DNA of 38,559 nucleotides from positions 1 through 38,559 of the forward strand of contig CAYHEU010000002.1 of NCBI GenBank assembly GCA_964355785.1. The letters run 5' to 3'. Numbering within the stretch: position 1 is the first letter of the stretch; every line of letters starts with the position of its first letter. Origin of the DNA: an uncultured Candidatus Saccharibacteria bacterium. GTDB lineage: Bacteria > Patescibacteriota > Minisyncoccia > UBA6257 > 2-01-FULL-56-20. A program made the position numbers and the translations under genes. A model generated the notes under the pieces. The model did no database searches. It saw only the letters and a program-made list of their open reading frames with translations, and was not told the DNA's origin. This document shows positions 3,965 to 34,214 of the stretch, one piece after another.

Positions 3965-5695
3965 ATGGACCCTCTTGAATTTCTCAAAGAATTAAAAAAA
4001 GCGGGACTTGTTGATGAAAGTACCGCGGTACAGCTTGGCCGCGAAGTTTCGCTCTCCGGAAGATCGCTCGAAGAGCTGGTCTATGAACGGCGTTTAATTG
4101 ACGACGAGAAAATCGCCGAGCTCAAAAGTTCGCTCCTCAAGATTCCCTATCAAAAGATCAATTTCGACGCGTTCGATAAGAGTCTCTTTGATCTTGTTCC
4201 CGAAGAGACCGCGCGGACCTATCTCGTTTCCCCGATTTCGAAAGAAGGAAACCTTCTTGTCGTGGGGATGGTGAACCCAGACGATTCGAAGGCTCAAGAA
4301 GCATTGAAGTTCGTGGGGCGGCAAAGCCGCGTGAATTTGGGAGTGTACGTGATATCCTACAGCGATTGGCAAGAAGTACTCCGGAAATATTCTCCGTATA
4401 AGACGCAGATCGAAGCTGCGGTAAAATCATTGAACTTGAAGGGCGGAGATGCGGCAAGGAAGCTCATAAAGCTCGAGGAGAGCATGAAGACAGTTGCCGA
4501 AGAAGCGCCGATCATACGTATTGTTGCCGACACGCTCCGCGAAGCGGTCCAAGCGCAGGCCTCCGACGTTCACATTGAGCCGCAGCAGAATTATCTGCGC
4601 GTAAGGTTTCGCGTCGACGGGAGTTTGCGGGAGGAGGCGTCGCTCCCAGTTGAGCTTGCACAGCCGGTCGTCTCGCGCGTCAAGGTCATCTCCAATCTGA
4701 AGATTGACGAATCGCGCGTTCCCCAGGACGGGAGATTCCGAGCGAAAATTTTTGACCGCGAGATTGATTTTCGCGTTTCGACATTTCCCACGCCGCTCGG
4801 AGAGAAGGTTGCAATTCGTATTCTCGATCCTACAACGGGACTCAAGAAACTCGATCAGCTTGGGCTTGTAGGAAGGAATCTTGAGCGGGTGAAAAAAGGG
4901 CTTGAGAAGCCCTATGGTCTCATACTCGTTACCGGGCCCACTGGTTCGGGAAAAACAACGACGATTTACGCGCTCCTCCAGATCTTGAATAAAGAAGACG
5001 TAAATATTGTGAGTCTTGAAGATCCGGTCGAGTACTCAATTTCGGGCCTGAACCAGTCGCAGGTTCGGCCGGAGATCGGTTACGACTTCGCTTCCGGACT
5101 CCGCGAAATTCTCCGCCAAGACCCGGACGTGATTTTGGTCGGTGAGATACGCGACAATGAAACCGCGGGACTTGCGATCCACGCGGCCTTAACCGGCCAT
5201 GTCGTGCTCTCAACGCTCCACACGAATAACGCGGTGGGGAGCATTCCGCGCCTCATTGATATGAAGGTGGAGCCGTTCCTCATTCCCTCGGCGATAAATC
5301 TTATAATTGCGCAGCGCCTTATCTCCGCGCTCTGCGAGAATTGCAAAAAGCCGGAAGAGGCCCCCCCCGCGGTTCAAAAGCTTGTGAAGAAAGCACTCTC
5401 GAATCTTCCTCCCGATACGCCGAATCCTTATAAGGAACCTTATAAGATATATCATGCACCGGGCTGTGACAGATGCCGCGGAAAGGGAGTTGCAGGGCGC
5501 GTTGCAGTCTACGAGTTTATCGAAATGACGCACGAGCTCGAGGAAATTGTAAATTCAGGATCACCGACCTCGCAGAAAATTTTGGAAGAAGGGAGGCGAC
5601 AGGGGATGATCACGCTCCGCGAAGACGGAGTTTTGAAGGCGCTCTCGGGACTTGTTCCGATTGAGGACGTTGTAAGAGAAACCGAAGACGCCTGA
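3965..5695 (+). CDS. pilB: Type IV pilus extension ATPase PilB (GspE family)
   Basis: N-terminal GspII_E-like domain, Walker A GPTGSGKTTT, Asp box, Walker B ILVGEIRD, His box TGHVVLSTLHTN, tetracysteine C..C...C..C. Confidence 0.92.
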   Translation: MDPLEFLKELKKAGLVDESTAVQLGREVSLSGRSLEELVYERRLIDDEKIAELKSSLLKIPYQKINFDAFDKSLFDLVPEETARTYLVSPISKEGNLLVVGMVNPDDSKAQEALKFVGRQSRVNLGVYVISYSDWQEVLRKYSPYKTQIEAAVKSLNLKGGDAARKLIKLEESMKTVAEEAPIIRIVADTLREAVQAQASDVHIEPQQNYLRVRFRVDGSLREEASLPVELAQPVVSRVKVISNLKIDESRVPQDGRFRAKIFDREIDFRVSTFPTPLGEKVAIRILDPTTGLKKLDQLGLVGRNLERVKKGLEKPYGLILVTGPTGSGKTTTIYALLQILNKEDVNIVSLEDPVEYSISGLNQSQVRPEIGYDFASGLREILRQDPDVILVGEIRDNETAGLAIHAALTGHVVLSTLHTNNAVGSIPRLIDMKVEPFLIPSAINLIIAQRLISALCENCKKPEEAPPAVQKLVKKALSNLPPDTPNPYKEPYKIYHAPGCDRCRGKGVAGRVAVYEFIEMTHELEEIVNSGSPTSQKILEEGRRQGMITLREDGVLKALSGLVPIEDVVRETEDA

Positions 5696-9515: not shown

Positions 9516-10148
9516 GTGCGGATAATAAAACCCCTAAATTCTAAATTCTATCCCCTAAATACTCACTCGGGTTTTACATTGATCGAGCTTCTTGTGGTTG
9601 TTGCGGTAACCCTTGTTGTCTCGAGTATCATGATTGTCTACGGGAACAAATCGCGGAGCCAGGCATCGCTCTCGATCGAGGCGGCGAAGATTGCGCAGGT
9701 GATCCTCCGCGCGAAATCGCTCGCAATCTCAACCTACAACATTCCTCCGATTCCCTGCGGCTACGGTATCAAGATAGATTATCCTAATAAAGAATATTCA
9801 CTTGTCCTCTACGATTATCTGCCGACCGAAACGGAATGCCTCGACATAAAAGACAGGCTTGTTCAAGAGCAGACGAGAATCGTGCCGCTTGCGGCGAGCG
9901 GGATTCCGGAAACCTATCGTTTAAGCGAAGGGGTTGTGTTTCCCACGCCGCCGAGCGGTCTTGTGGAATACGTGGTGTTCGTGCCACCGGATCCGAAGAC
10001 TCACATATTCCTGCGGCCGGGAGGAGGAGGCGGATCGCCGAATCCCGCGCTCACCTCCGGCTCCGGCGAGATAAAAATTGAAACACAAGATGGCTCCGTG
10101 GGTATCTCGATATTCATAACGCCATTCGGGCAACTGAGCTTCCGATGA
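9516..10148 (+). CDS. Prepilin-type minor pilin (long leader)
   Basis: GTG start. Leader MRIIKPLNSKFYPLNTHSG|FTLIELLVVVAV with Glu+5. Confidence 0.75.
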   Translation: MRIIKPLNSKFYPLNTHSGFTLIELLVVVAVTLVVSSIMIVYGNKSRSQASLSIEAAKIAQVILRAKSLAISTYNIPPIPCGYGIKIDYPNKEYSLVLYDYLPTETECLDIKDRLVQEQTRIVPLAASGIPETYRLSEGVVFPTPPSGLVEYVVFVPPDPKTHIFLRPGGGGGSPNPALTSGSGEIKIETQDGSVGISIFITPFGQLSFR

Positions 10149-20684: not shown

Positions 20685-20761
20685 GCGGGCGTAGCTTAGC
20701 GGTCTAAAGCGCTGCCCTGTCACGGCAGAGATCGTGGGTTCAAATCCCATCGCCCGCGCCA
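20685..20761 (+). tRNA. tRNA-Asp (anticodon GTC), CCA encoded
   Basis: Acceptor GCGGGCG/CGCCCGC, D-arm TAGCTTAGCGGTCTAAAGC, anticodon stem CTGCC/GGCAG with loop CTGTCAC, T-arm GTGGG-TTCAAAT-CCCAT, discriminator G, then CCA. Confidence 0.9.
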
Positions 20762-22375
20762 TTTGAGACGAATCGAGGCAAGAGCCTCTTCTCTTGTAGA
20801 ATCCAACGGCCTTTTCCACGGTTCTAACTTTTTGTATTCCGTTTCGAGTTCTGGATAAGCATTTCCGATTGGTATGAACCATTCGTACGGAGAAATATTG
20901 AGTTTTCCGTCTTTAAGGACTGAGTTCTGACTGAACCCCTTAAGTATTTCCCGTTTTACCTCTAGAGTACCGAAAAGAAAGGCTTTATGAGCGTATAGAG
21001 CGAAGTTAAATGTCTTTTCAGTCAGTTCTAGCCATTTCTCGGCTCTCGCCTCGGTATCGCGTAAATTAGCCTTGAGTTGAAGTATTTTCTTCTCTAGCTC
21101 ACCCTTCTCTTGGAGAAAAAAATTATCGCCAATCATTTCTCGGTATCGCATTCTGATGAGTTCGTCGAGTTCGCTTTGAGTCTTCACGAGCGTCCTGTTT
21201 TGCATTTCGTAGATTTTGGTCCTATCTTCAATTTCTTTATCGTTCTGTTCGTTAAGAACTTCTAGCGCCCAATCTCTAAACTCGGGCAGAATCGTATATT
21301 TTTCAATTTCGTTTTCAATTTGCAGCTCGATATTTTCCAGCGAAACGGTTTTCCTCTGAGAACAATTAACTTCCACTTTTTTGCGGGTGCAGAAGTAATA
21401 CGTAAAACTTTTGAGCTTATTATCTCTTTTAATCAGTTTAATCTTCTCTATGGCGGTAATCATGCAATTACATTCACCACAGTGCATGCATCCCGTGAAA
21501 GCGAATATGTGTTTCTTGGGCCTAGGCTTACCCTTTCTTCCTAGTAAGACTTGAACTCTGTCAAATTCTTCAAGTGTTACAATGGGGTCATGTTTGCCTT
21601 CGTATAGGTTCCCCTTGTATTCGATAAGACCCGCATAGAATGGATTGGTAAAGATTCTATAAAGGGTGCTTCGAGACATTGGTTTGCCACCTTTCTTTTT
21701 GGTTTGTCTAGTTCTGAATCCCCATTGATTGTTAAGAATTTCAAGAATTTGTGGTGGCGTGTAGTTTCCCGTGAGCATTAAGTCCCACGCCTTGCGGATT
21801 AAATGAAAACGCTCTGGGTCATTCAGTATATAGTTTTCCCCTCGTAGTTCTGTTTTTGTGTTGAGATACCCCGAAGGAGCCGAGCCAGGAAGCCACCCCT
21901 TTTGCCGCTTTGTGTTTAGGCCTCGTTTTACCGCAACACTGCTGTCGTCCGAGTATTTTTTGGCCATTCCAAACTCAAGTTGAAGCATGAATTTGTCCTC
22001 GGGTGTGTTGCGGTAAACTCGCTGCAGAGTTTTAACTTCTACAAGTTTACTTTCATCCATTGCGGTGACTATCCACCCTCCATCAAAGGCATTTCGAGCC
22101 AACCTATTTGGATGCCAAACCAAGAGCCCTCCTGCCTTTCCCGACTCTATTTGTTGCATAACGTGGTTGAAGATAGGCCTACCGCGCTTAAAGGCACTCT
22201 GGCTTTCACCTTTCTCGCTGCCGCCGAATCTTTCAATAACCTTGAGGTGTTCACGTTTTTCTATAGCTGCTAGCTCCCTCTCTTGGTCATCAAGGGAGAG
22301 CATCTGTCTGTCTTCGCTCTCGGTGCTTTTACGGCAGTACAGAATATATTTAATTTTCTCGCTTTCTTGTTTCAT
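20720..22375 (-). CDS. Large serine recombinase (integrase)
   Basis: N-terminal resolvase domain YCRKSTESEDRQMLSLDDQ, recombinase domain, Zn ribbon CMHCGECNCMITA...C, long coiled-coil. ATG at 22375 is preferred over the track TTG at 22462. The last 13 codons and the stop lie antisense in tRNA-Asp. Confidence 0.88.
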   Translation of the reverse strand: MKQESEKIKYILYCRKSTESEDRQMLSLDDQERELAAIEKREHLKVIERFGGSEKGESQSAFKRGRPIFNHVMQQIESGKAGGLLVWHPNRLARNAFDGGWIVTAMDESKLVEVKTLQRVYRNTPEDKFMLQLEFGMAKKYSDDSSVAVKRGLNTKRQKGWLPGSAPSGYLNTKTELRGENYILNDPERFHLIRKAWDLMLTGNYTPPQILEILNNQWGFRTRQTKKKGGKPMSRSTLYRIFTNPFYAGLIEYKGNLYEGKHDPIVTLEEFDRVQVLLGRKGKPRPKKHIFAFTGCMHCGECNCMITAIEKIKLIKRDNKLKSFTYYFCTRKKVEVNCSQRKTVSLENIELQIENEIEKYTILPEFRDWALEVLNEQNDKEIEDRTKIYEMQNRTLVKTQSELDELIRMRYREMIGDNFFLQEKGELEKKILQLKANLRDTEARAEKWLELTEKTFNFALYAHKAFLFGTLEVKREILKGFSQNSVLKDGKLNISPYEWFIPIGNAYPELETEYKKLEPWKRPLDSTREEALASIRLKWRGRWDLNPRSLP

Positions 22376-22540
22376 AAACTCAAAGGGCGGTTCTGGTTGA
22401 CCCAGCCGCTTGCCCACACGGGTAGCCTTCTGGCAGAACCGCCCTTTCAGGGTAGAAGGCAATAAAAATCCGTGTGGATTTGCTTCGGCGGGTCAACGAT
22501 TCAATTGTACCACTTTTTCTCAACATATAAAAGCATCTAA

Positions 22541-24601: not shown

Positions 24602-24861
24602 CCACGTGATGTTCAATGCCTTGCCTGACAAAGCCGTTCTTTAAAGCTTCATAAAAAAGTGGTTAAATTAGATTGAAAATTAAATATGAGCCTAAACTGC
24701 GCCAGAATGGCGTGGCAGGGCGTAAAAAAGCCCCACAAAGGTATTAAGCTCCTCGTCAGAGCACCTTTGTGGGTCATATGGGGAAACCTATATGGGTGGC
24801 CGCAAGGCCATCGCTGGCGGGGAGCTTTGTATTTAAAGGAGTCCTCCTCTAGCTCCAAGTT

Positions 24862-25860
24862 ATGGAAAGAGAAAGTTCCGAGAATAAAAATAAATCATTA
24901 CAGACAAGAGACTGGGTTGTTAGCAAGAATATTGTTGCGGGAGTTTCCCTGGTAATCGTTGTGGCAGTCTCAATTACTGCCTTAAAGATAAGCACAAACG
25001 AGCAGAAAGGAACTGATGGTGGATTTGCGCTAACAGAAGAAGAAATTACTCGAATATCAAGGTCCGTCGTTGCTGTTCAGTGTTTGTATGATGAGAACGA
25101 TGACGGACAGTGGGACGATGCTATTTATGGCTCGGGAATATATATCGGCGAAGCCTTTATCAGCAGAGAAAGAAGTAAAACCTTTGGGGAAAAATTTACT
25201 CTCTATGATGGATATGTCCTTACTAATGCACACGTCGCACAACTTAAAAGAAAATATAAAGAAAAGTATGACTATAATTTTTGCTCCATTGAAATCTCGC
25301 TACCAGAGTTAGAGCCGTCGCGACGAGGAATTTTCCCGTATGTATACGATGACAAGGCCCATTTTCTGTATGATGGTAAAGTTGACATTGCGCTCTTAAG
25401 ATTTAGTACGGTGCTTCACGGGGAAGAAGTAGTAAATGAGACAAGTAAATTGGTTAACTTCGACCAAAATCTTTTGCGCAACAACATACTTCCGTCTTAC
25501 CCGTTTTGTTCGTATGAAAGAGTTGTTGGGAAAAGAGTTTATATTTTTGGTTATCCAAGCAGTGCCTTTGAATTTGAAAAAATAGAAAGTAGTTTTTTAG
25601 AAGAGCCAACAACAATCATTGCTCAACAGAATCTAATTATTTCCGAAGGCATCATTAGTGGAGTAAACAGTAGCGGAAACTATTACACGACAGCTAGGAT
25701 TGATACGGGGAATTCTGGCGGATTGGCAATCTCAAAATCAGGCGGAGAAATTTGCTTATTGGGAGTTCCGACATGGGTAAGCGAAGGCGAATACGAGAAT
25801 CTAGGTGTTATACAGCCATTTTCTAAACTATTTACTGTTCTCCAGTCGTCTCTTGAATGA
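24862..25860 (+). CDS. Membrane-anchored trypsin-like (S1/chymotrypsin-fold) serine protease
   Basis: N-terminal TM (IVAGVSLVIVVAVSITAL). Catalytic triad contexts VLTNAHVA, VDIALLRF, DTGNSGGLA. Confidence 0.8.
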   Translation: MERESSENKNKSLQTRDWVVSKNIVAGVSLVIVVAVSITALKISTNEQKGTDGGFALTEEEITRISRSVVAVQCLYDENDDGQWDDAIYGSGIYIGEAFISRERSKTFGEKFTLYDGYVLTNAHVAQLKRKYKEKYDYNFCSIEISLPELEPSRRGIFPYVYDDKAHFLYDGKVDIALLRFSTVLHGEEVVNETSKLVNFDQNLLRNNILPSYPFCSYERVVGKRVYIFGYPSSAFEFEKIESSFLEEPTTIIAQQNLIISEGIISGVNSSGNYYTTARIDTGNSGGLAISKSGGEICLLGVPTWVSEGEYENLGVIQPFSKLFTVLQSSLE

Positions 25861-26930
25861 AATACACAGAAAAAATTAAAAGGTTAACATTTGGAGTATT
25901 TAATCTACTCGCTTTCACTGCTGTATTAGCCATAGCTTTCGGGGGGTTGCAGATTCCTTTCACAGGGGATTGGGCGTGGAACTGGATTCTTGGGTTGGTT
26001 TTCATTATTGGATTTTGGCATTTTGCGTATTCTCTTGGTCGGGATGGAAAAGACAAGCAAGTGATTCCGAGTAGGGAAGAAAATCCTCAAAACTTATCGA
26101 ACGAGAAAGCAACAGGCGAAAGGAAAGAGGGAGAAATTGTTTTCCTCCCGACTTATCGCAATCCAAGTAGCCCGAAGCCGTACTGGGAGCATGACCCAGA
26201 GGACAACTTAATCAAAGTTTTAGAAGAGCTGGAAAAAGAAGAGCAGGAAAGACCCAGAATCCTCGCGCATAAGAATCACAACGTACCCCTAATTAAGTGT
26301 AGAAAATGCAGCACCATCTATTGTCCCCTGGAAAAGTATTGCCCTGAGTGCAAGGAGGTTGATGTAAGCAACGTTGAAATTCGAGAACAATGGCGGCGCG
26401 AGTTAATAACGTTTTCCGATAACTGGGGCTCGTCAGTCGAAGACGCTATTGTGATTAGAGGTGCAGAGAGCCAATCCGAAGGGATTGCCGTCGAACATCG
26501 CTATTTACAAGGCAAATATGGTGAGCGTAGAGAAGATTGGGATTTATTGGTACAGCAACTTATCCATGACGGCGGAAGAAGCTATGACCAAATGGAGCTA
26601 TCTCTTCTGCCAGATGGCTTCAAAGAAACTTTGTATTTTGACATTACGGATTTTTTTGGTAAGCAAACGCCAGCATTGACGCGAGCAGCCGAGGAAATAA
26701 TGAGTTATAAGGACGTCGAGGATGCAGGGCGCCAACTGGTCCAAAATATGAATGCCACAAGGAAAATTTCAGAGACCCTATTTGCTGTCTACTCTTACGT
26801 GTGCGAAATTTTTGATGGGAAGCGAGGTAGGTTTTTAGAAATTGTGGCCACAATAATAGGTATAATTTTTGGTATATATTTTCTGACACTTTTCGTAGCG
26901 GTTATCTTTTGGTTATATGAGAATTTTTGA
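25857..26930 (+). CDS. Membrane protein with central Zn ribbon and a soluble domain of unknown function
   Basis: ATGA overlap with the protease stop (translational coupling). Two N-terminal TMs and one C-terminal TM. CRKCSTIYCPLEKYCPECK ribbon. Soluble domain ...AIVIRGAESQSEGIAVEHRYLQGKYG...YDQMEL...LYFDITDFFGK. Confidence 0.6.
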   Translation: MKYTEKIKRLTFGVFNLLAFTAVLAIAFGGLQIPFTGDWAWNWILGLVFIIGFWHFAYSLGRDGKDKQVIPSREENPQNLSNEKATGERKEGEIVFLPTYRNPSSPKPYWEHDPEDNLIKVLEELEKEEQERPRILAHKNHNVPLIKCRKCSTIYCPLEKYCPECKEVDVSNVEIREQWRRELITFSDNWGSSVEDAIVIRGAESQSEGIAVEHRYLQGKYGERREDWDLLVQQLIHDGGRSYDQMELSLLPDGFKETLYFDITDFFGKQTPALTRAAEEIMSYKDVEDAGRQLVQNMNATRKISETLFAVYSYVCEIFDGKRGRFLEIVATIIGIIFGIYFLTLFVAVIFWLYENF

Positions 26931-27080: not shown

Positions 27081-27881
27081 ATGGGAAAATCATCCTGGTT
27101 GGTAAATCTTACATCTACGATTTATCAGCCTCCAAATTATGGGATAATGGTTTCAATGGAAGAGAAGAAATTAACTCAAGCAGATTTCGAAAAACTTGAA
27201 AAAGAGTTTCTGACTAATCTCCAGAAGATATTTAGTGATATTACGGCTTCTATCAGAATTTTACGCAAGCGAAATAAGGCATTCGTCAAAAGCGAGCTGT
27301 GTTTAGCTTTTACTGCTGCCGATACTTTCTCCCGTTTCTATAAAATTTTTCAAGGTTCTTCCGAGGAAGAATTGGATAAGTGGAGTGAGGATAGATTCAA
27401 GGCTTGGATGCAGGACTTTGTATTCAATAACGCGAACGAAGTGTACAAAGTTCATAAGGAAGACATAGCTTGTGATACTGGCCTTGCGTGGAAACTTCGC
27501 TGTTCCTTACTGCACTTTTATGGGTTACCTAGTCCAAAAAGCACTGGCGGGAGAGTCGGCTTCATGGGTGGAAATCCCGAAGAAGTAATGAAGATGAGAG
27601 AGGAATTTAGTAAAAGAGGAAAACATATACAACTCGTACATCCGTACTGGTTAGTCGAGGCAATTTTGAGTGGCTTATTGGTACAGTTGCAGAGCATGGT
27701 GAAAATGATTCGAGAAAACCCCAACGCCTATATTAAGGGGGTAAGGTTGGCACACAAGATTATCATGTCCGAAGGTGCAATTTTTGTTGACATTGAAAAA
27801 ATGATGCGACAGACGGGCATTCGCAAATGGAAGAGCAAAGTACAAACCCTCCTTGGTTACCTCCGAAAACGTATAAGTTAA
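27081..27881 (+). CDS. Hypothetical alpha-helical protein with HEPN-type Rx4H motif
   Basis: LAWKLRCSLLHFYG (R140..H145, nt 27498..27515) in a predicted helical protein. The start is uncertain; internal ATGs fall at codons 23 and 26. Confidence 0.45.
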   Translation: MGKSSWLVNLTSTIYQPPNYGIMVSMEEKKLTQADFEKLEKEFLTNLQKIFSDITASIRILRKRNKAFVKSELCLAFTAADTFSRFYKIFQGSSEEELDKWSEDRFKAWMQDFVFNNANEVYKVHKEDIACDTGLAWKLRCSLLHFYGLPSPKSTGGRVGFMGGNPEEVMKMREEFSKRGKHIQLVHPYWLVEAILSGLLVQLQSMVKMIRENPNAYIKGVRLAHKIIMSEGAIFVDIEKMMRQTGIRKWKSKVQTLLGYLRKRIS

Positions 27882-27888
27882 CTCTCAG

Positions 27889-28593
27889 GTGCCAAAAACC
27901 CCAAACGGAATAATTGGATTTTTCAGTTACAGTCTTGAAGACAAGCAGCAGAATAATTTTGACCTACATCACGCACGAAAAGTTTTTGACTTAAAAATCA
28001 CCAATACGTTTCCTTTGGTTACTTTAAACAGTGAGGGCGAGCAATTTGTACAGAACAGTTCTGGGGGTATCGGGAAATCGTCCATTGAATTTCAGCATTT
28101 TTCTATCCCTCCAGACCTAGAAGTCCATCTGAGTGGTCCCGCAGGACATCAATTTTTCGAGACTGACCTCGTTGACCCCAAAACGAAGGAGATGAAAAGA
28201 GATTTTATTCACATGTTTAGTTGGCTAAGTAAGCCAATAGTGCACTATCAATATTTTCCAAAAGGCACTTGGTATGGTGCAGCGTTGATAACTTTGATAC
28301 CTGGCCAAGAACATACTCAAAACACTGGTCTTTTCGTTGATTTTTTTGTGCATCGAAAACTCACTGATTACAGCCAGGCTAAAACCTTTCAGCTACAAAA
28401 CCCAACCTGCTACTTTATGCGCCCAAGTGAAGAGAAATCATACCTCTTTGGCCCTTACGACTTTTATGGCGACGATGTTTTTAGAGGGAAAAATCCTAGC
28501 GTAAAGGGGGCAAATTTTTTCACTATACGTTTTGGTTTTTATGAGTGTAGAGATGGGAATTCGAAATTAGTAATACCCTTTAAACCAAGGTAA
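27889..28593 (+). CDS. Hypothetical protein (no recognisable domain)
   Basis: GTG start 7 nt after the previous stop. 234-aa ORF, aromatic-rich and probably beta-rich. Confidence 0.45.
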   Translation: MPKTPNGIIGFFSYSLEDKQQNNFDLHHARKVFDLKITNTFPLVTLNSEGEQFVQNSSGGIGKSSIEFQHFSIPPDLEVHLSGPAGHQFFETDLVDPKTKEMKRDFIHMFSWLSKPIVHYQYFPKGTWYGAALITLIPGQEHTQNTGLFVDFFVHRKLTDYSQAKTFQLQNPTCYFMRPSEEKSYLFGPYDFYGDDVFRGKNPSVKGANFFTIRFGFYECRDGNSKLVIPFKPR

Positions 28594-28686
28594 TATTTCC
28601 AGAGGCCACGAGCTTTGGTTGTATTATAATGCCGTCTATGTCGGGCAAAACCAAATCAAAGACTAGCTATTAATTTACTACAAGAT

Positions 28687-29775
28687 ATGACAAGGAACAG
28701 AGCCATTTTTCTTGCATTCACGGGACAAGAAATTGAGCAGTCGGAGCACACCTCTGAAATACGGGATGGCTATGAATGCTGGAATCTCAAAAAATTTACT
28801 CTAGCCGAATTTATTAAAGCGCTTCAAGGCAAGATACCGCCAGTTAACGATAATGTCCTTCGGAACTATGCGAGAAACGAAGACAACACACAGGACATAT
28901 TTGGTATTACCGAAAGACTTTTCAAAGAGTGTTCTTGGGGCCTGCTCATTCCCGATAGCTTGGAGGATGCTGTGGGTAACTATGCGGAGACGATTTTCTT
29001 AGTTAACCTGTATTCTCCAACGTTTCTTTACCCACTATTTTATGCTGGCGACATGGGCATCACACGTCCAGTGCATGACCGAGAAATTTTCGAATTTGCC
29101 CACTATCAAAATCAAGCACCCCTTTTCAAAAGAAAGGAATTTGTTTCTTTCTTCAAGACCATGCTTCCACAATCTCAGTACGGGACATGGATGCTCTATC
29201 GTGCTCAGAGGTGGGATGAAGAGGACTGGCGACTATTCGTTGCGGGGATGCTTTTTTCTGGTCTTAGAGATTACGACAATAGAAAAACATCGTTTGGCTG
29301 GCAGAGGGAATCTGCTGATATGGGAGCGGTTCTTGAATCACTATTCACCGCAGGAGATTCTCACAACGAAGAGGTTGGATACAGATTGCGGAAGCGCGTA
29401 GCAGTGCTTTTGTCAAAGAGATTCCCATCAATCGAGGAAGATATTAAACAGCTCTACGCACAGCGGAGTGCATTTGTGCATGGAGCGTTTTTTGCACAAA
29501 TTGCGCGAGATAGCAAAGATGCCTTTAACAATCTCCCAATTCCAGATTTTAACCTCTTGTATCAACAAAAAGAGTATGTCCGATGGGCACTGGTTGCCTA
29601 TCTCCATCTGGCACAACTCGTAAAATCGAAGCCAGCCCCATATGGCGGCGCAACAAAGGTTATTAGAGTGCTCGAAAACTCAATTATAGATATGGAGTTG
29701 CGAAAGAAAGTCCTTGCAGATGTCGAGAAAGTTCTTTCTTTGTTGCCCAAACCGAGGGGATACGACGAGACTTAA
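28687..29775 (+). CDS. Hypothetical protein with C-terminal HEPN-like domain (Apea-like pattern)
   Basis: LYAQRSAFVHGAFF (R260..H265, nt 29464..29481) preceded by helical segments. The RS..VHG pattern resembles HEPN RNase active-site helices. Confidence 0.5.
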   Translation: MTRNRAIFLAFTGQEIEQSEHTSEIRDGYECWNLKKFTLAEFIKALQGKIPPVNDNVLRNYARNEDNTQDIFGITERLFKECSWGLLIPDSLEDAVGNYAETIFLVNLYSPTFLYPLFYAGDMGITRPVHDREIFEFAHYQNQAPLFKRKEFVSFFKTMLPQSQYGTWMLYRAQRWDEEDWRLFVAGMLFSGLRDYDNRKTSFGWQRESADMGAVLESLFTAGDSHNEEVGYRLRKRVAVLLSKRFPSIEEDIKQLYAQRSAFVHGAFFAQIARDSKDAFNNLPIPDFNLLYQQKEYVRWALVAYLHLAQLVKSKPAPYGGATKVIRVLENSIIDMELRKKVLADVEKVLSLLPKPRGYDET

Positions 29776-30022: not shown

Positions 30023-30069
30023 CTAAGAGATAGCAATATCTTTTGGTGAAATCTCTTAGCCGCTTTTTT
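30023..30069 (+). terminator. Terminator-like hairpin plus U-tract inside the leader of the HD-domain gene
   Basis: CTAAGAGAT (30023..30031) pairs with ATCTCTTAG (30051..30059), followed by CCGC and TTTTTT (30064..30069). Competing pairings exist (see finding). Confidence 0.4.
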
Positions 30070-30138
30070 CGTTTTCGGGGAGGTCGAGTGAAAACGAAGA
30101 ACGAGCTAATAGTCGAAAAAAATAACAAAAACAAATCT

Positions 30139-30726
30139 ATGAACAATACACAAAATCTCGTAGAGAAGGCCATAGCGAAAGCAATAGAGCTTCACAAAGG
30201 GCAAGTAAGAAAAGGGGATGGCAAAATTCCTTATGTCGTGCACCCCTTTGAAGTTGGCATAATCGTTGCGCGATATACCAATAGCCCAGAGCTCGTTGCC
30301 GTAGCCATCCTTCACGATACCGCAGAGGATTGTAAATACCCTCTTGAAGAACTAGAGAACGAGTTTGGAAGCGAGGTAAAAAATATCGTATCTACGCTCA
30401 CGGAGAATAAAGCAATTTCTGATTGGGCGGACCGAAAGATAGAAAACATTAAACGCTTGCGATTGAATCAGGAAGCCTACTTCATCAAAAGCGCCGATGC
30501 ACTTGCAAATATGCGTTCGCTTCTCACGGCAATAAAGGAAGAAGGTTCCATTGTGTGGTCCCGATTCAACGCCCCGAAAGAAAAGAAGATGGATTACTTC
30601 AAGGTTATCCTTCAAGACACAGAGGATTTTCTTCCGAAGAAGCTCATTGAAGACTATGTCTCGGCCCTAAAAGACCTTGAATACTCAGAGTTTCTGGAGA
30701 AAGAATCAGCCTTTGGATTTGCGTAA
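30139..30726 (+). CDS. HD-domain (p)ppGpp/alarmone hydrolase-like protein (SpoT/Mesh1-type small alarmone hydrolase)
   Basis: AIELHKGQVRKGDGKIPYVVHPFEVGII...VAVAILHDTAEDC...L...FG..V...V..LTE is the classic HD hydrolase core. ATG at 30139 is preferred over the track start at 30043. Confidence 0.75.
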   Translation: MNNTQNLVEKAIAKAIELHKGQVRKGDGKIPYVVHPFEVGIIVARYTNSPELVAVAILHDTAEDCKYPLEELENEFGSEVKNIVSTLTENKAISDWADRKIENIKRLRLNQEAYFIKSADALANMRSLLTAIKEEGSIVWSRFNAPKEKKMDYFKVILQDTEDFLPKKLIEDYVSALKDLEYSEFLEKESAFGFA

Positions 30727-30812: not shown

Positions 30813-31328
30813 ATGAGAAGACACGTTATCGGTATTATGACCTCCCTCCTATTACTGGTCCCAATTGCTAGCTTTGCTCATCCTGGGCGAACGGATAGTT
30901 ACGGATGCCACACGTGCCGCACGAATTGTCCTTCGTGGGGGCTAAGTTCTGGAGAATATCATTGCCATCATGCCAAGGCGTTACCACAACCAGAACCGCC
31001 TATTAGGAGCCGTTACGGCGAATATGGAACTGGATACACGGAGCCAGCGCCTGACTACGCGAAGCCTGTCTCGCCCGTAACTCCGACTCTCGCACCAAAG
31101 CCTGTACCATCGTACCAGCCGCAGTCACCACAATACGCGCCCGAACCCAAGGTAGAATTTTTGCAACCAAAAAAAGAAAGCGTTGACGCCGCTTCTCCAT
31201 CCAACCAACTCCAAGAAATAGAGGAAAAGTATTCACCCTCTCAACAAGCGGCGGTAGTGCATAACAATCAACCTCAGGAGGGATTTTGGAAGCGACTGTT
31301 TGGTTGGTTCGCAAATCTTTTTGATTAG
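30813..31328 (+). CDS. Secreted YHYH-domain protein with Pro/Gln-rich tail
   Basis: Signal peptide, then HPGRTDSYGCHTC....GEYHCHH, matching the YHYH motif pattern. Confidence 0.65.
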   Translation: MRRHVIGIMTSLLLLVPIASFAHPGRTDSYGCHTCRTNCPSWGLSSGEYHCHHAKALPQPEPPIRSRYGEYGTGYTEPAPDYAKPVSPVTPTLAPKPVPSYQPQSPQYAPEPKVEFLQPKKESVDAASPSNQLQEIEEKYSPSQQAAVVHNNQPQEGFWKRLFGWFANLFD

Positions 31329-31331
31329 CCA

Positions 31332-31607
31332 ATGAAAAAATTAATCGTTTGGATTCTACTCGTTAGTGGGGTTGTCGGAGGTATATGGTGGTTTAATTCC
31401 AATAATTCTCAGAGTTCTAAGACCAGTTTTGAGCGTCTCGATAATCCGAATATAGAACGCTCTTTCTCTTCAGGCGATTACGACTGTTCTGATTTTTCCA
31501 CCCAAGATGAAGCACAGACATTCTTTGAATCAGAAGGCGGGCCTAGCGACGACCCTCATAATTTAGACAGAGATGGTGATGGTGTGGCCTGCGAGTCGTT
31601 GCCGTAA
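31332..31607 (+). CDS. Excalibur calcium-binding domain protein
   Basis: N-terminal TM. C-terminal [16 protein letters not shown]...[18 protein letters not shown] matches the Excalibur signature. Confidence 0.75.
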
Positions 31608-31976: not shown

Positions 31977-32453
31977 ATGGAAACAGAAAACCTTTCTGCA
32001 AAGGACGACATTATTAGGGGCGATAAAGCCATCTTGGGCTATTTAGTTGAAAACTGTATATCTGCCTATGATGAATTGTGCAAAGTAAATCGAGAGCTTG
32101 TTGAGGGAATGGCACCAAACTCAAATGCCGACGTAAATCGTTTGGGTATGATGAACAGGGTACTTCAAGATTACGTAATTATTCGCGTTGGTGGACTGTT
32201 TGATAGGGTGAAATATAAGACAAGAGGCGAAACCGATGAAGTCATCTCTTTCGAAAAGCTATATTCTGGTGACAAAGGGCTTGAAAACGTAAAAGGGCAA
32301 GAAATCATAAAATACATTATTAAGCAAAGGCATAATTTTACTGCACACACTAACCGAAATCATATAGAAAAAAACTTCCCAGTGACGGCCAAGATTTGCG
32401 ATTCTAACCTAAAGACATTATTGGAAATCTTGCAAAAATTATTAAAAAGCTAA
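31977..32453 (+). CDS. Hypothetical helical protein with HEPN-type Rx5H motif (AbiU2-like pattern)
   Basis: IIKQRHNFTAHTNRNH (R118..H124, nt 32328..32348) near the C-terminus of a 158-aa helical protein. Confidence 0.4.
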   Translation: METENLSAKDDIIRGDKAILGYLVENCISAYDELCKVNRELVEGMAPNSNADVNRLGMMNRVLQDYVIIRVGGLFDRVKYKTRGETDEVISFEKLYSGDKGLENVKGQEIIKYIIKQRHNFTAHTNRNHIEKNFPVTAKICDSNLKTLLEILQKLLKS

Positions 32454-32765: not shown

Positions 32766-34214
32766 TCAGAGCTTCTCGTAATATTCCCCAAGCGCGAAAA
32801 GGTCTCCTTCTCCCAACATTTTTCCGATGAGCTGGAATCCCACGGGGAGGGGAAGATCGCCTTTTATAGGAATTGATATTGCCGGGAGCCCTGCGAGATT
32901 CACGGGAATCGTAAAAATATCAGAAAGGTACATCGAGAGCGGATCTGCGGTTTTCTCTCCGATTGCGAATGCAGTCGTAGGAGAAGTGGGCGCGAGGATT
33001 ACATTCACTTCTTTGAACGCATCGTCGAAATCTTTCTTTACCAGCGTTCTTACCTGTTGAGCTTTTCTGTAGTACGCGTCGTAGTAGCCGGACGAGAGCA
33101 CAAACGTCCCGAGGATAATACGCCGTTTCACCTCGCTTCCGAAACCGAGCCCCCGCTGTTTAAAATAGATCTCCCGAAGCGTGCGGTGCTGGTGATCGGG
33201 GTTTGAAGCCCGAATCCTCGAGTAGCGGACGCCGTCAAAGCGGGCAAGATTCGCGCTCGCCTCCGCAGGGAGAATTATGTAATAACAGGAGAGCGCGTAT
33301 TTGGAATGCGGAAGAGAAATTTCCTTGAACCGTATCCCAAGGGATTTCAGATCTTTTATCGCCGTCTCTACCGCGTCATTCACGCTTTTTTCAAGCTTGT
33401 AGGAAAAATATTCTTTCGGGATGCCAATCGTAAAATTCTTAATTTCTTCAAAAGACGGCTTCTTGAAACGTTTGTGGTGCTCCATGGGTAAGCTTGTCGC
33501 GTCCTGGGAATCATGCCCTCGGATTGCCCTATAGAGAATTTCCGCGTCCGCAACCGTTTTTGTGATCGGACCGATTTGATCCAAGCTTGAGGCAAGTGCG
33601 ATAAGTCCCGAGCGGGAAACTGTTCCATAGGTCGGTTTGAATCCGACTACTCCGCAGAGCCCGGCCGGCTGGCGGATTGATCCGCCGGTGTCGGACCCTA
33701 AAGCTCCGAGCGCCATATGGGCCGCGACCGCCGCGGCTGATCCTCCGGAAGACCCTCCCGGAACTCGCCTTGGATCGTACGGATTCCGTGTGATCTGAAA
33801 GGCCGAATTCTCGGTTGAAGATCCCATCGCGAACTCGTCGAGGTTCGTCTTGCCGAGGAAAACTGCTTTGCGGTGCTTCAGTTTTTTTATTACCCCCGCA
33901 TCATATGCGGCCGTGTAGTTCCCGAGGATTTTCGAGCCCGCAGTTGCGGGGAGTTTCTTTATCAAAATATTGTCCTTGATCGCAAGAGGAACGCCCGCGA
34001 GCTCGTCGATTTCTTCTCCCTTCGCGATTGCAAGGTCGACTTTTTCCGCGGCTCTTGCCGCTCCCTCTTCGTCCAAACTCAAATACGCGCCGATTTTCTT
34101 GTCAGCATCCTTAATATGAGAGAAGAACGTCTGGGCGATCTCAAGCGCCGAAAACTCTTTGCGGATAAGTCCCGCGTGAAATTTTTTGATCGTAAGATCC
34201 TTAAGCGCGTTCAT
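32766..34214 (-). CDS. gatA: Glu/Asp-tRNA amidotransferase subunit A (amidase signature family)
   Basis: Amidase signature [12 protein letters not shown]...[15 protein letters not shown] at 34214 ([13 protein letters not shown]...) starts 1 nt after the gatC stop. The track start at 34376 runs through repeat sequence. Confidence 0.92.

Follow-up and report, generated by a model that had tools for sequence, protein, structure and literature searches.

In HEPN RNases, helix-3 ends in an Rx4-6H signature whose His is exposed where the loop to helix-4 begins; a polar residue (N, D or H) directly follows the Arg of this motif, helix-2 carries an acidic Ex3[KR] motif, and inserts occur between helices 2 and 3 (PMC3710099). 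At least 16 HEPN clades are tied to restriction-modification (R-M) systems, and such linkage is one of the settings in which HEPN proteins are met most often (PMC3710099). The HEPN tRNase ApeA is activated by a ligand and cleaves tRNA anticodon loops; its ligand pocket is separate from the active site, the protein dimerises via the HEPN core, and the catalytic residues lie on helix H3 (bioRxiv 10.64898/2026.01.26.701840). Some ApeA-type members are located inside R-M operons (PMC3710099). We analysed a stretch of 38,559 nucleotides (nt) from an uncultured Candidatus Saccharibacteria bacterium (contig CAYHEU010000002.1; hereafter the window), in which three adjacent genes, designated A, B and C, occupy positions 27081-29775. 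They lie in the cargo part of an integrative element of about 12 kb that adjoins a tRNA-Asp gene in a Patescibacteria-like genome. A preliminary description of this DNA had proposed that the three genes constitute one defence module, with two HEPN-motif proteins flanking an adaptor or sensor. We found instead that each gene represents its own family, the members of which stand alone in other genomes, and we are inclined, with slightly better than even confidence, to regard 27081-29775 as three unrelated single-gene accessory modules placed side by side, with A and C as HEPN-like effectors.

All three genes are on the plus strand. Gene A (27081..27881, +), annotated as an open reading frame (ORF) of 266 amino acids (aa), encodes an all-helical protein that is a candidate stand-alone HEPN-like RNase; gene B (27889..28593, +), a 234-aa ORF with a GTG start, encodes an orphan protein of a small family; and gene C (28687..29775, +), a 362-aa ORF, encodes a two-domain protein. 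The A-B gap is 7 nt and the B-C gap 93 nt. The candidate HEPN catalytic motifs are LRCSLLH in A (residues 139-145; R140..H145 at 27498..27515, +) and QRSAFVHG in C (residues 259-266; R260..H265 at 29464..29481, +), and the three co-directional ORFs, both gaps and both Rx4H motifs are located exactly where the preliminary description had placed them. Relatives drawn from an index of 5.8 billion proteins numbered 194 or more for C, 14 for A and 9 for B, and 66 genomic loci (560 kb) around relatives were taken from assemblies, GTDB species genomes and JGI metagenomes. Family-profile hmmsearch of all six-frame ORFs in these loci detected A in 26, B in 9 and C in 31, and two of the three families occurred together in none of the 66 loci; tblastn of 58 loci likewise found no such pair. 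Because conserved co-occurrence or adjacency was seen nowhere among these loci, A-B-C is not considered a multi-gene system. Searches of IMG/VR viral contigs and PLSDB plasmids likewise returned no member of the A, B or C family. The co-occurrence search that the preliminary description had itself proposed thus found the genes never together in these 66 loci and each in unrelated contexts, and a module of two HEPN proteins and an adaptor or sensor is not supported. That HEPN-motif genes lie close together on a mobile element does not show that they form a system; such elements stack independent single-gene modules.

The A family comprises 14 homologues of 191-243 aa that are 42-57% identical, plus 21 metagenome loci. 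In the AlphaFold2 (AF2) model of A, which has a mean predicted local distance difference test score (pLDDT) of 80, residues 1-28 are disordered with pLDDT <50, and the homologues align from about residue 31; hence, the start of A appears to lie further downstream than annotated, probably at M23 (nt 27147) or M26 (nt 27156), which would yield a protein of about 241-244 aa. Alignment of the 14 sequences revealed 26 invariant columns, R140 and H145 among them. The motif block has the consensus WKLRNSLLHFYGLP, in which R is followed by N in 11 of the 14 sequences and by C in the other three, the window protein included. Invariant in the same 14 sequences are D81 and R85 of D81-T-F-S-R85 (27321..27335, +), an acidic-x3-basic candidate HEPN helix-2 motif on a predicted helix (69-90). 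According to the secondary structure of the model, that is, its one-dimensional topology, helix 133-144 has R140 close to its end, and H145 opens the next loop. A helical hairpin (102-129) is predicted between the D81x3R85 helix and the motif helix, and the motif is followed by an insert with a beta-hairpin and then by a long helix (188-212). Protein A therefore has a conserved Rx4-6H with a polar residue after R in most members (N in 11/14), and the model places its Rx4H at a helix end, its His at the opening of a loop and its acidic-x3-R on an upstream helix.

The neighbours of A in other genomes include R-M genes: in one locus (L045), A lies between an HsdM-like methylase gene (N6_Mtase + HSDR_N_2) and an HsdS-like gene, and in three others (L006-8), it begins 40 nt after a gene for an Mrr_cat_2-ResIII-helicase protein. 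Genes for NYN-domain proteins (RNases) were also observed within three genes upstream of A in L006 (2100-2690), L009 (4890-5462) and L041 (269-718); the L006 and L041 NYN proteins are mutually only 28% identical, and no NYN gene is present near A in the window. The nearest analogues of A are PrrC/RloC and Abi2/AbiD/AbiF, with which it shares a gene position within or beside type I/III R-M operons and the R-N-x3-H motif; A differs in that it is without the ABC-ATPase domain of PrrC/RloC and has the beta-hairpin-containing insert after the motif. Like A, the HepT/DUF86 toxin of HepT-MntA pairs (PDB 7AE8, 5YEP) is small and mostly helical, and the motif context of A, R-N-x-h-h-H-x-Y (RNSLLHFY), resembles what we take to be the DUF86 signature RNxxxHxY. 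HepT-MntA differs in its genetic arrangement, as no MNT/nucleotidyltransferase antitoxin gene is adjacent to A in any A locus. If A is indeed a stand-alone HEPN-like RNase, its site would consist of R140-(N/C)-x3-H145 together with D81-x3-R85, which lies on a preceding helix. PrrC and AbiD/F suggest by analogy that the protein may act as a second line of defence, a suicide RNase that responds once a neighbouring or resident system has been subverted, and such a back-up function behind R-M is the presumed logic that A would share with R-M-linked HEPN nucleases (PMC3710099).

The C family is much larger, with 194 homologues at E<=1e-3, most of which are 48-72% identical; they derive mostly from Patescibacteria and also from Binataceae and other metagenome-assembled genomes. 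An alignment of 48 sequences contains 30 invariant columns, including R260, H265 and G266, and S261 is conserved in at least 90% of them. R260, H265 and G266 are also retained in ten more relatives read from the loci, six of which are only 33-43% identical, and a second motif of C, Rx6H (R132..H139), is not conserved. The AF2 model of C has a mean pLDDT of 92.1 and a predicted template modelling score of 0.91, and divides the protein into an alpha/beta N-terminal domain (residues ~1-130) and a helical domain (~134-350) that carries the Rx4H motif. In the model, R260 is near the end of helix 249-264, and H265 starts a break before helix 267-275. Just upstream of the Rx4H helix, helix 227-242 carries an Ex3R motif, E229-V-G-Y-R233 (29371..29385, +), the E229 of which is at least 90% conserved and not invariant, being lost in L037; helix 202-220 contributes an invariant acidic pair, E208 and E217. 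Protein C, too, has a conserved Rx4-6H with a polar residue after R (S261), and the model places the motif at a helix end and loop start and Ex3R on the preceding core helix. Two relatives of C, P0088 (538 aa) and P0092 (539 aa), have an additional C-terminal GGACT/AIG2-like domain of the gamma-glutamyl cyclotransferase fold (~370-518), which is too uninformative to bear on function.

A large serine recombinase gene was found within three genes of C in 8 of 24 loci, and recombinases near C amount to about 12 distinct places when the window and matches within ~6 kb are counted; in L032 and L034-36, the order is recombinase, C, tRNA, with C as the last gene before the tRNA. In the L016/L065 operon, C is the last of four genes, preceded by those for an HsdR-like protein, an HsdM/S fusion and a 700-aa protein, with a gap of 1 nt before C. 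Proteins of about 700 aa are encoded directly upstream of C in three loci, namely L016 3840-5999 (the same as L065 4897-6999), L015 925-3030 and L020 3810-5996; they are 54-78% identical in pairwise comparison, lie inside a type I-like R-M operon in L065, and had no Pfam domain and no PDB relative. In some genomes, C may have the ~700-aa protein as a partner. In a Binataceae contig, C stands alone between a CoA-transferase gene and an MFS transporter gene.

In its proposed mode of action, C has its nearest analogue in ApeA, which combines, in one polypeptide, one or more non-catalytic N-terminal domains with a diverged C-terminal HEPN domain that has insertions around the core helices. C is far shorter than Ec2ApeA, the HEPN region of which alone spans residues 335-583 (bioRxiv 10.64898/2026.01.26.701840), and its N-terminal domain is alpha/beta, whereas ApeA is mostly helical; neither C nor its relatives matched HEPN_Apea or ApeA_NTD1 (Pfam, E<=5) or the ApeA models of PADLOC (E<=0.5). 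As a single-protein, ligand-activated HEPN tRNase, ApeA provides a precedent for the mechanism proposed for C, in which one protein would be both sensor and effector: the N-terminal alpha/beta domain would restrain the C-terminal HEPN-like domain or receive a signal for it. The putative active site is R260-S-x3-H265-G. Once activated, C would probably form a dimer with a composite site, as other HEPN enzymes do, and growth would be arrested through its cleavage of cellular RNA, for instance tRNA or mRNA; as a result, the element or the host population might be guarded from phage, or the element might be stabilised.

As to whether A and C are HEPN proteins, the preliminary description had itself cautioned that Rx4H is short enough to occur by chance. 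From composition, the motif is expected 0.28 times per A and 0.41 times per C, and because of this chance expectation of 0.3-0.4 per protein, a single occurrence says little and invariance is what counts. The caution was thus correct for one occurrence and is answered by the invariance of R and H in both families (14 A and 48 C sequences), which indicates that the motifs are under selection. The placement of the motifs, the acidic-x3-R, the polar residue after R and the R-M or mobile company of A and C all match the published description of HEPN proteins (PMC3710099). Membership is not established; a HEPN-like nature is the best-supported hypothesis for each of the two proteins, and we hold it with confidence modestly above even. 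The conserved motifs, their placement on helices and the R-M or mobile surroundings partly support the earlier HEPN proposal, whereas the profile and fold searches that had been suggested as a check, for which AF2 models were made, gave no significant match to hidden Markov models (HMMs), to PDB entries or with Foldseek.

Several observations weigh against this interpretation. None of the profile or fold searches (Pfam, NCBIfam, PADLOC, PHROGs, PDB, Foldseek) joins A or C to any HEPN family. For Pfam, NCBIfam, PADLOC and PHROGs, no relevant match was found with either window protein or with 14 A members and 48 C members searched singly; members of the A family had no match at E<=5 to the HEPN-clan Pfam models; and searches of the PDB by sequence, by family profile and by trimmed motif-core profile returned chance matches only, for A and for C alike. 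Foldseek with the A model against the PDB gave a best E of 0.31, with HepT 7AE8 at rank 34 and template modelling (TM) scores of 0.16/0.22, which is noise level in a type of search where all-alpha folds are presumably poorly resolved. For C, the best Foldseek E was 0.44 in the PDB and 0.9 in BFVD, with AbiV 9bj7 at rank 48 and TM scores of 0.18/0.31, again noise level, and the N-terminal alpha/beta domain had no detectable structural relative in either database. Moreover, the profiles of A and C could not be aligned with each other by hhalign, at full length or trimmed, and their motifs were not aligned. C is also unusually conserved for a defence gene, with 50-72% identity across phyla, and, because of the conserved 700-aa protein upstream of it in three loci, it is not always solo. 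The sole recurring library match, to PADLOC PDC-M41A, was dismissed as noise: E was >=0.0017 in 3 of the 50 members scanned, and in A of the window the match covered residues 12-77 only.

One alternative that has to be taken seriously, although we think it rather unlikely, is that A, C or both are not HEPN RNases, and that their Arg and His serve ligand binding, another chemistry or structure in novel helical folds encoded by maintenance or regulatory genes of the serine-recombinase element rather than by toxin genes. It would explain why no significant HMM or Foldseek likeness to any HEPN family was detected and why C is conserved over its full length (mean column identity 51% in the 48 sequences), unlike fast-evolving toxins; the position of C directly downstream of the recombinase and last before the tRNA, in the four loci named above, would suit a function in the element. 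It does not account for the full HEPN grammar of both proteins, in which R-polar-x3-H, frequently with G or an aromatic residue after the His, is located at the end of a helix and downstream of acidic-x3-R. HEPN families are, in addition, very divergent, and all-helical proteins are presumably a weak spot of Foldseek and HMM searches. Both families are also found without a recombinase, in R-M operons or among host metabolic genes, and an element-specific role is disfavoured for this reason. The same distribution bears on the improbable proposal that C acts as a toxin for addiction to, or stabilisation of, LOOT/serine-recombinase elements, or in competition between elements, and not in anti-phage defence, with A and B as unrelated passengers. 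In its favour are the roughly 12 places where C has a large serine recombinase within ~6 kb, the LOOT RNA (described below) in 7 of 11 recombinase-bearing C loci, and the lack of C in IMG/VR viral contigs and PLSDB plasmids; the presence of C in R-M operons and, with no recombinase, in a chromosome region of Binataceae speaks against it, as does the finding that all-against-all clustering of the C flanking genes revealed no conserved antitoxin-like neighbour.

Least probable of all, and in our view very improbable, is that A, B and C together form one three-gene defence or abortive-infection system of two HEPN nucleases with an adaptor or sensor between them. In the window, the genes share one direction and are closely set, with only 7 nt between A and B, and all three families occur in R-M-rich or mobile surroundings. 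Set against this are the absence of any pair of families from the 66 loci by profile HMMs and from 58 loci by tblastn, the very unequal family sizes in the same database, and a weak terminator-like hairpin in the B-C gap (28599..28618, +; consensus scan). The hairpin scan found fewer sites in the real than in shuffled sequence, so this hairpin only hints that C is transcribed separately. With regard to the adaptor or sensor role that had been suggested for B, this gene was found solo near R-M genes, and nothing indicates that it acts as an adaptor of A or C.

If A and C are independent HEPN-like effectors, as we favour, they would be new members of a very large and familiar class, used in a familiar way. 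None of the current annotation libraries (Pfam, NCBIfam, PADLOC, PHROGs) contains A, B or C, and the three are therefore regarded as new families. Patescibacteria, members of the candidate phyla radiation (CPR), have small genomes in which few defence systems are recognised beyond R-M and CRISPR; if A and C are active HEPN nucleases, two defence families have been missed by those four libraries, and in C, a sensor domain of no known class would be joined to an effector in one compact protein. A more ambitious interpretation, which we offer tentatively and with some doubt, is that C represents a new, widely transferred family (194+ members) of single-protein immune sensor-effectors that join an unclassified alpha/beta domain to a highly diverged HEPN RNase and form the signature cargo of LOOT-marked, tRNA-targeting serine-recombinase elements, with A and B as two further undescribed R-M-associated defence families.

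Protein B had been described as having no recognisable features, and it indeed had no match in Pfam, NCBIfam, PADLOC, PHROGs or the PDB. The word-indexed search returned 9 homologues, and a full HMMER scan of 1.84 billion proteins returned 69 cluster representatives; longer relatives added no Pfam domains. Among 36 diverse members, H70, P74 and H80 are invariant, with the consensus QHLSIPPDLxxHLT, and S72, D76, L77, R214 and G216 are at least 90% conserved. The block H70-F-S-I-P-P-D-L-E-V-H80 (28096..28128, +) is the sole strictly invariant block of the family and a candidate active or metal-binding site. Its two tandem H-h-[ST] motifs recall 2H phosphoesterases, for which the 10-residue spacing is atypical; B might, as a guess, be a small hydrolase or metal-binding protein built on the His dyad. 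B was also considered as a PD-(D/E)xK nuclease, which was rejected because the GPD...DLK pattern occurs only in close relatives, D18 being lost and D34 and K36 being variable in the wider family. In other genomes, B follows a complete type I R-M system plus DUF6978/DUF1828 (L059-62), adjoins LexA, methylase and Vsr genes (L011 and L063), or lies ahead of ParB-methylase genes and an HsdR gene (L013). B is thus viewed as an independent orphan protein with a His70/His80 dyad and not as a dedicated partner of A or C. B relatives were found beside genes for LexA-type repressors in L011 (3551-5278, -) and L063 (210-809, -), two loci that are maybe not independent, and the L011 repressor is fused to a DNA methylase; this gives a hint of SOS-linked regulation.

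The location of the three genes on an integrated element, as proposed in the preliminary description, was borne out. At the left end of the element are the tRNA-Asp gene (20685-20761, +) and a gene for a large serine recombinase (20720-22462, -), after which come a helix-turn-helix gene and a Phage_rep_O-like gene. From about 21 to 33 kb, G+C is down to 0.37-0.45, compared with about 0.5-0.57 outside, and host genes (GatA amidase, Mur ligase) start again at 32766. Direct repeats of attachment (att) sites were looked for on the element and none were found, which is the expected outcome for a serine recombinase. The window recombinase is 36.5% identical to the recombinase directly upstream of C in L034.

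The element also encodes a LOOT RNA (RF03000) at 24689..24812 (+; 84.5 bits). This RNA was detected in 7 of 11 recombinase-bearing C loci, in none of 14 other C loci, whose three flanking genes as retrieved included no recombinase, and in none of 15 A/B loci. The positive loci are L001 (9635-9780), L003 (5694-5800, -), L021 (7825-7944), L023 (8659-8784), L028 (4444-4570, -), L034 (293-419, -) and L037, which has two copies (4157-4277, -, and 9586-9704), and the gene downstream of the RNA differs between loci. LOOT RNA looks like a component of tRNA/tmRNA-targeting serine-recombinase elements in Patescibacteria, and this link gives an orphan RNA motif a genomic home.

A third HEPN-motif gene of the element was noticed downstream of C, a 158-aa ORF (31977..32453, +) with a weak match to HEPN_AbiU2 in Pfam (E=6.2e-4; 19.7 bits, under the 26.8-bit cut-off) and an Rx5H motif, R118-H-N-F-T-A-H124 (nt 32328-32348). 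A and C have no similarity to this AbiU2-type HEPN family (PF18734). Given the extra HEPN_AbiU2-like gene carrying RHNFTAH, the element appears to collect and stack HEPN-type modules.

The remaining cargo is varied. Just downstream of C, 30043-30726 (+) encodes an HD_4/HD domain protein (E=9e-15) with a RelA/SpoT-type hydrolase domain, which may be a small alarmone hydrolase. Two apparently secreted small proteins are encoded at 30813-31607 (+): one of 171 aa, rich in Cys/His and Pro, and another of 91 aa that contains an Excalibur calcium-binding domain. Two genes that overlap by 4 nt lie immediately downstream of the LOOT RNA: one (24862-25860, +) encodes a trypsin-like peptidase, and the other (25857-26930, +) a 357-aa protein with hydrophobic segments at its ends and a weak match to a zinc ribbon; a homologue of the trypsin-like protein is also encoded about 3 kb from C in L017.

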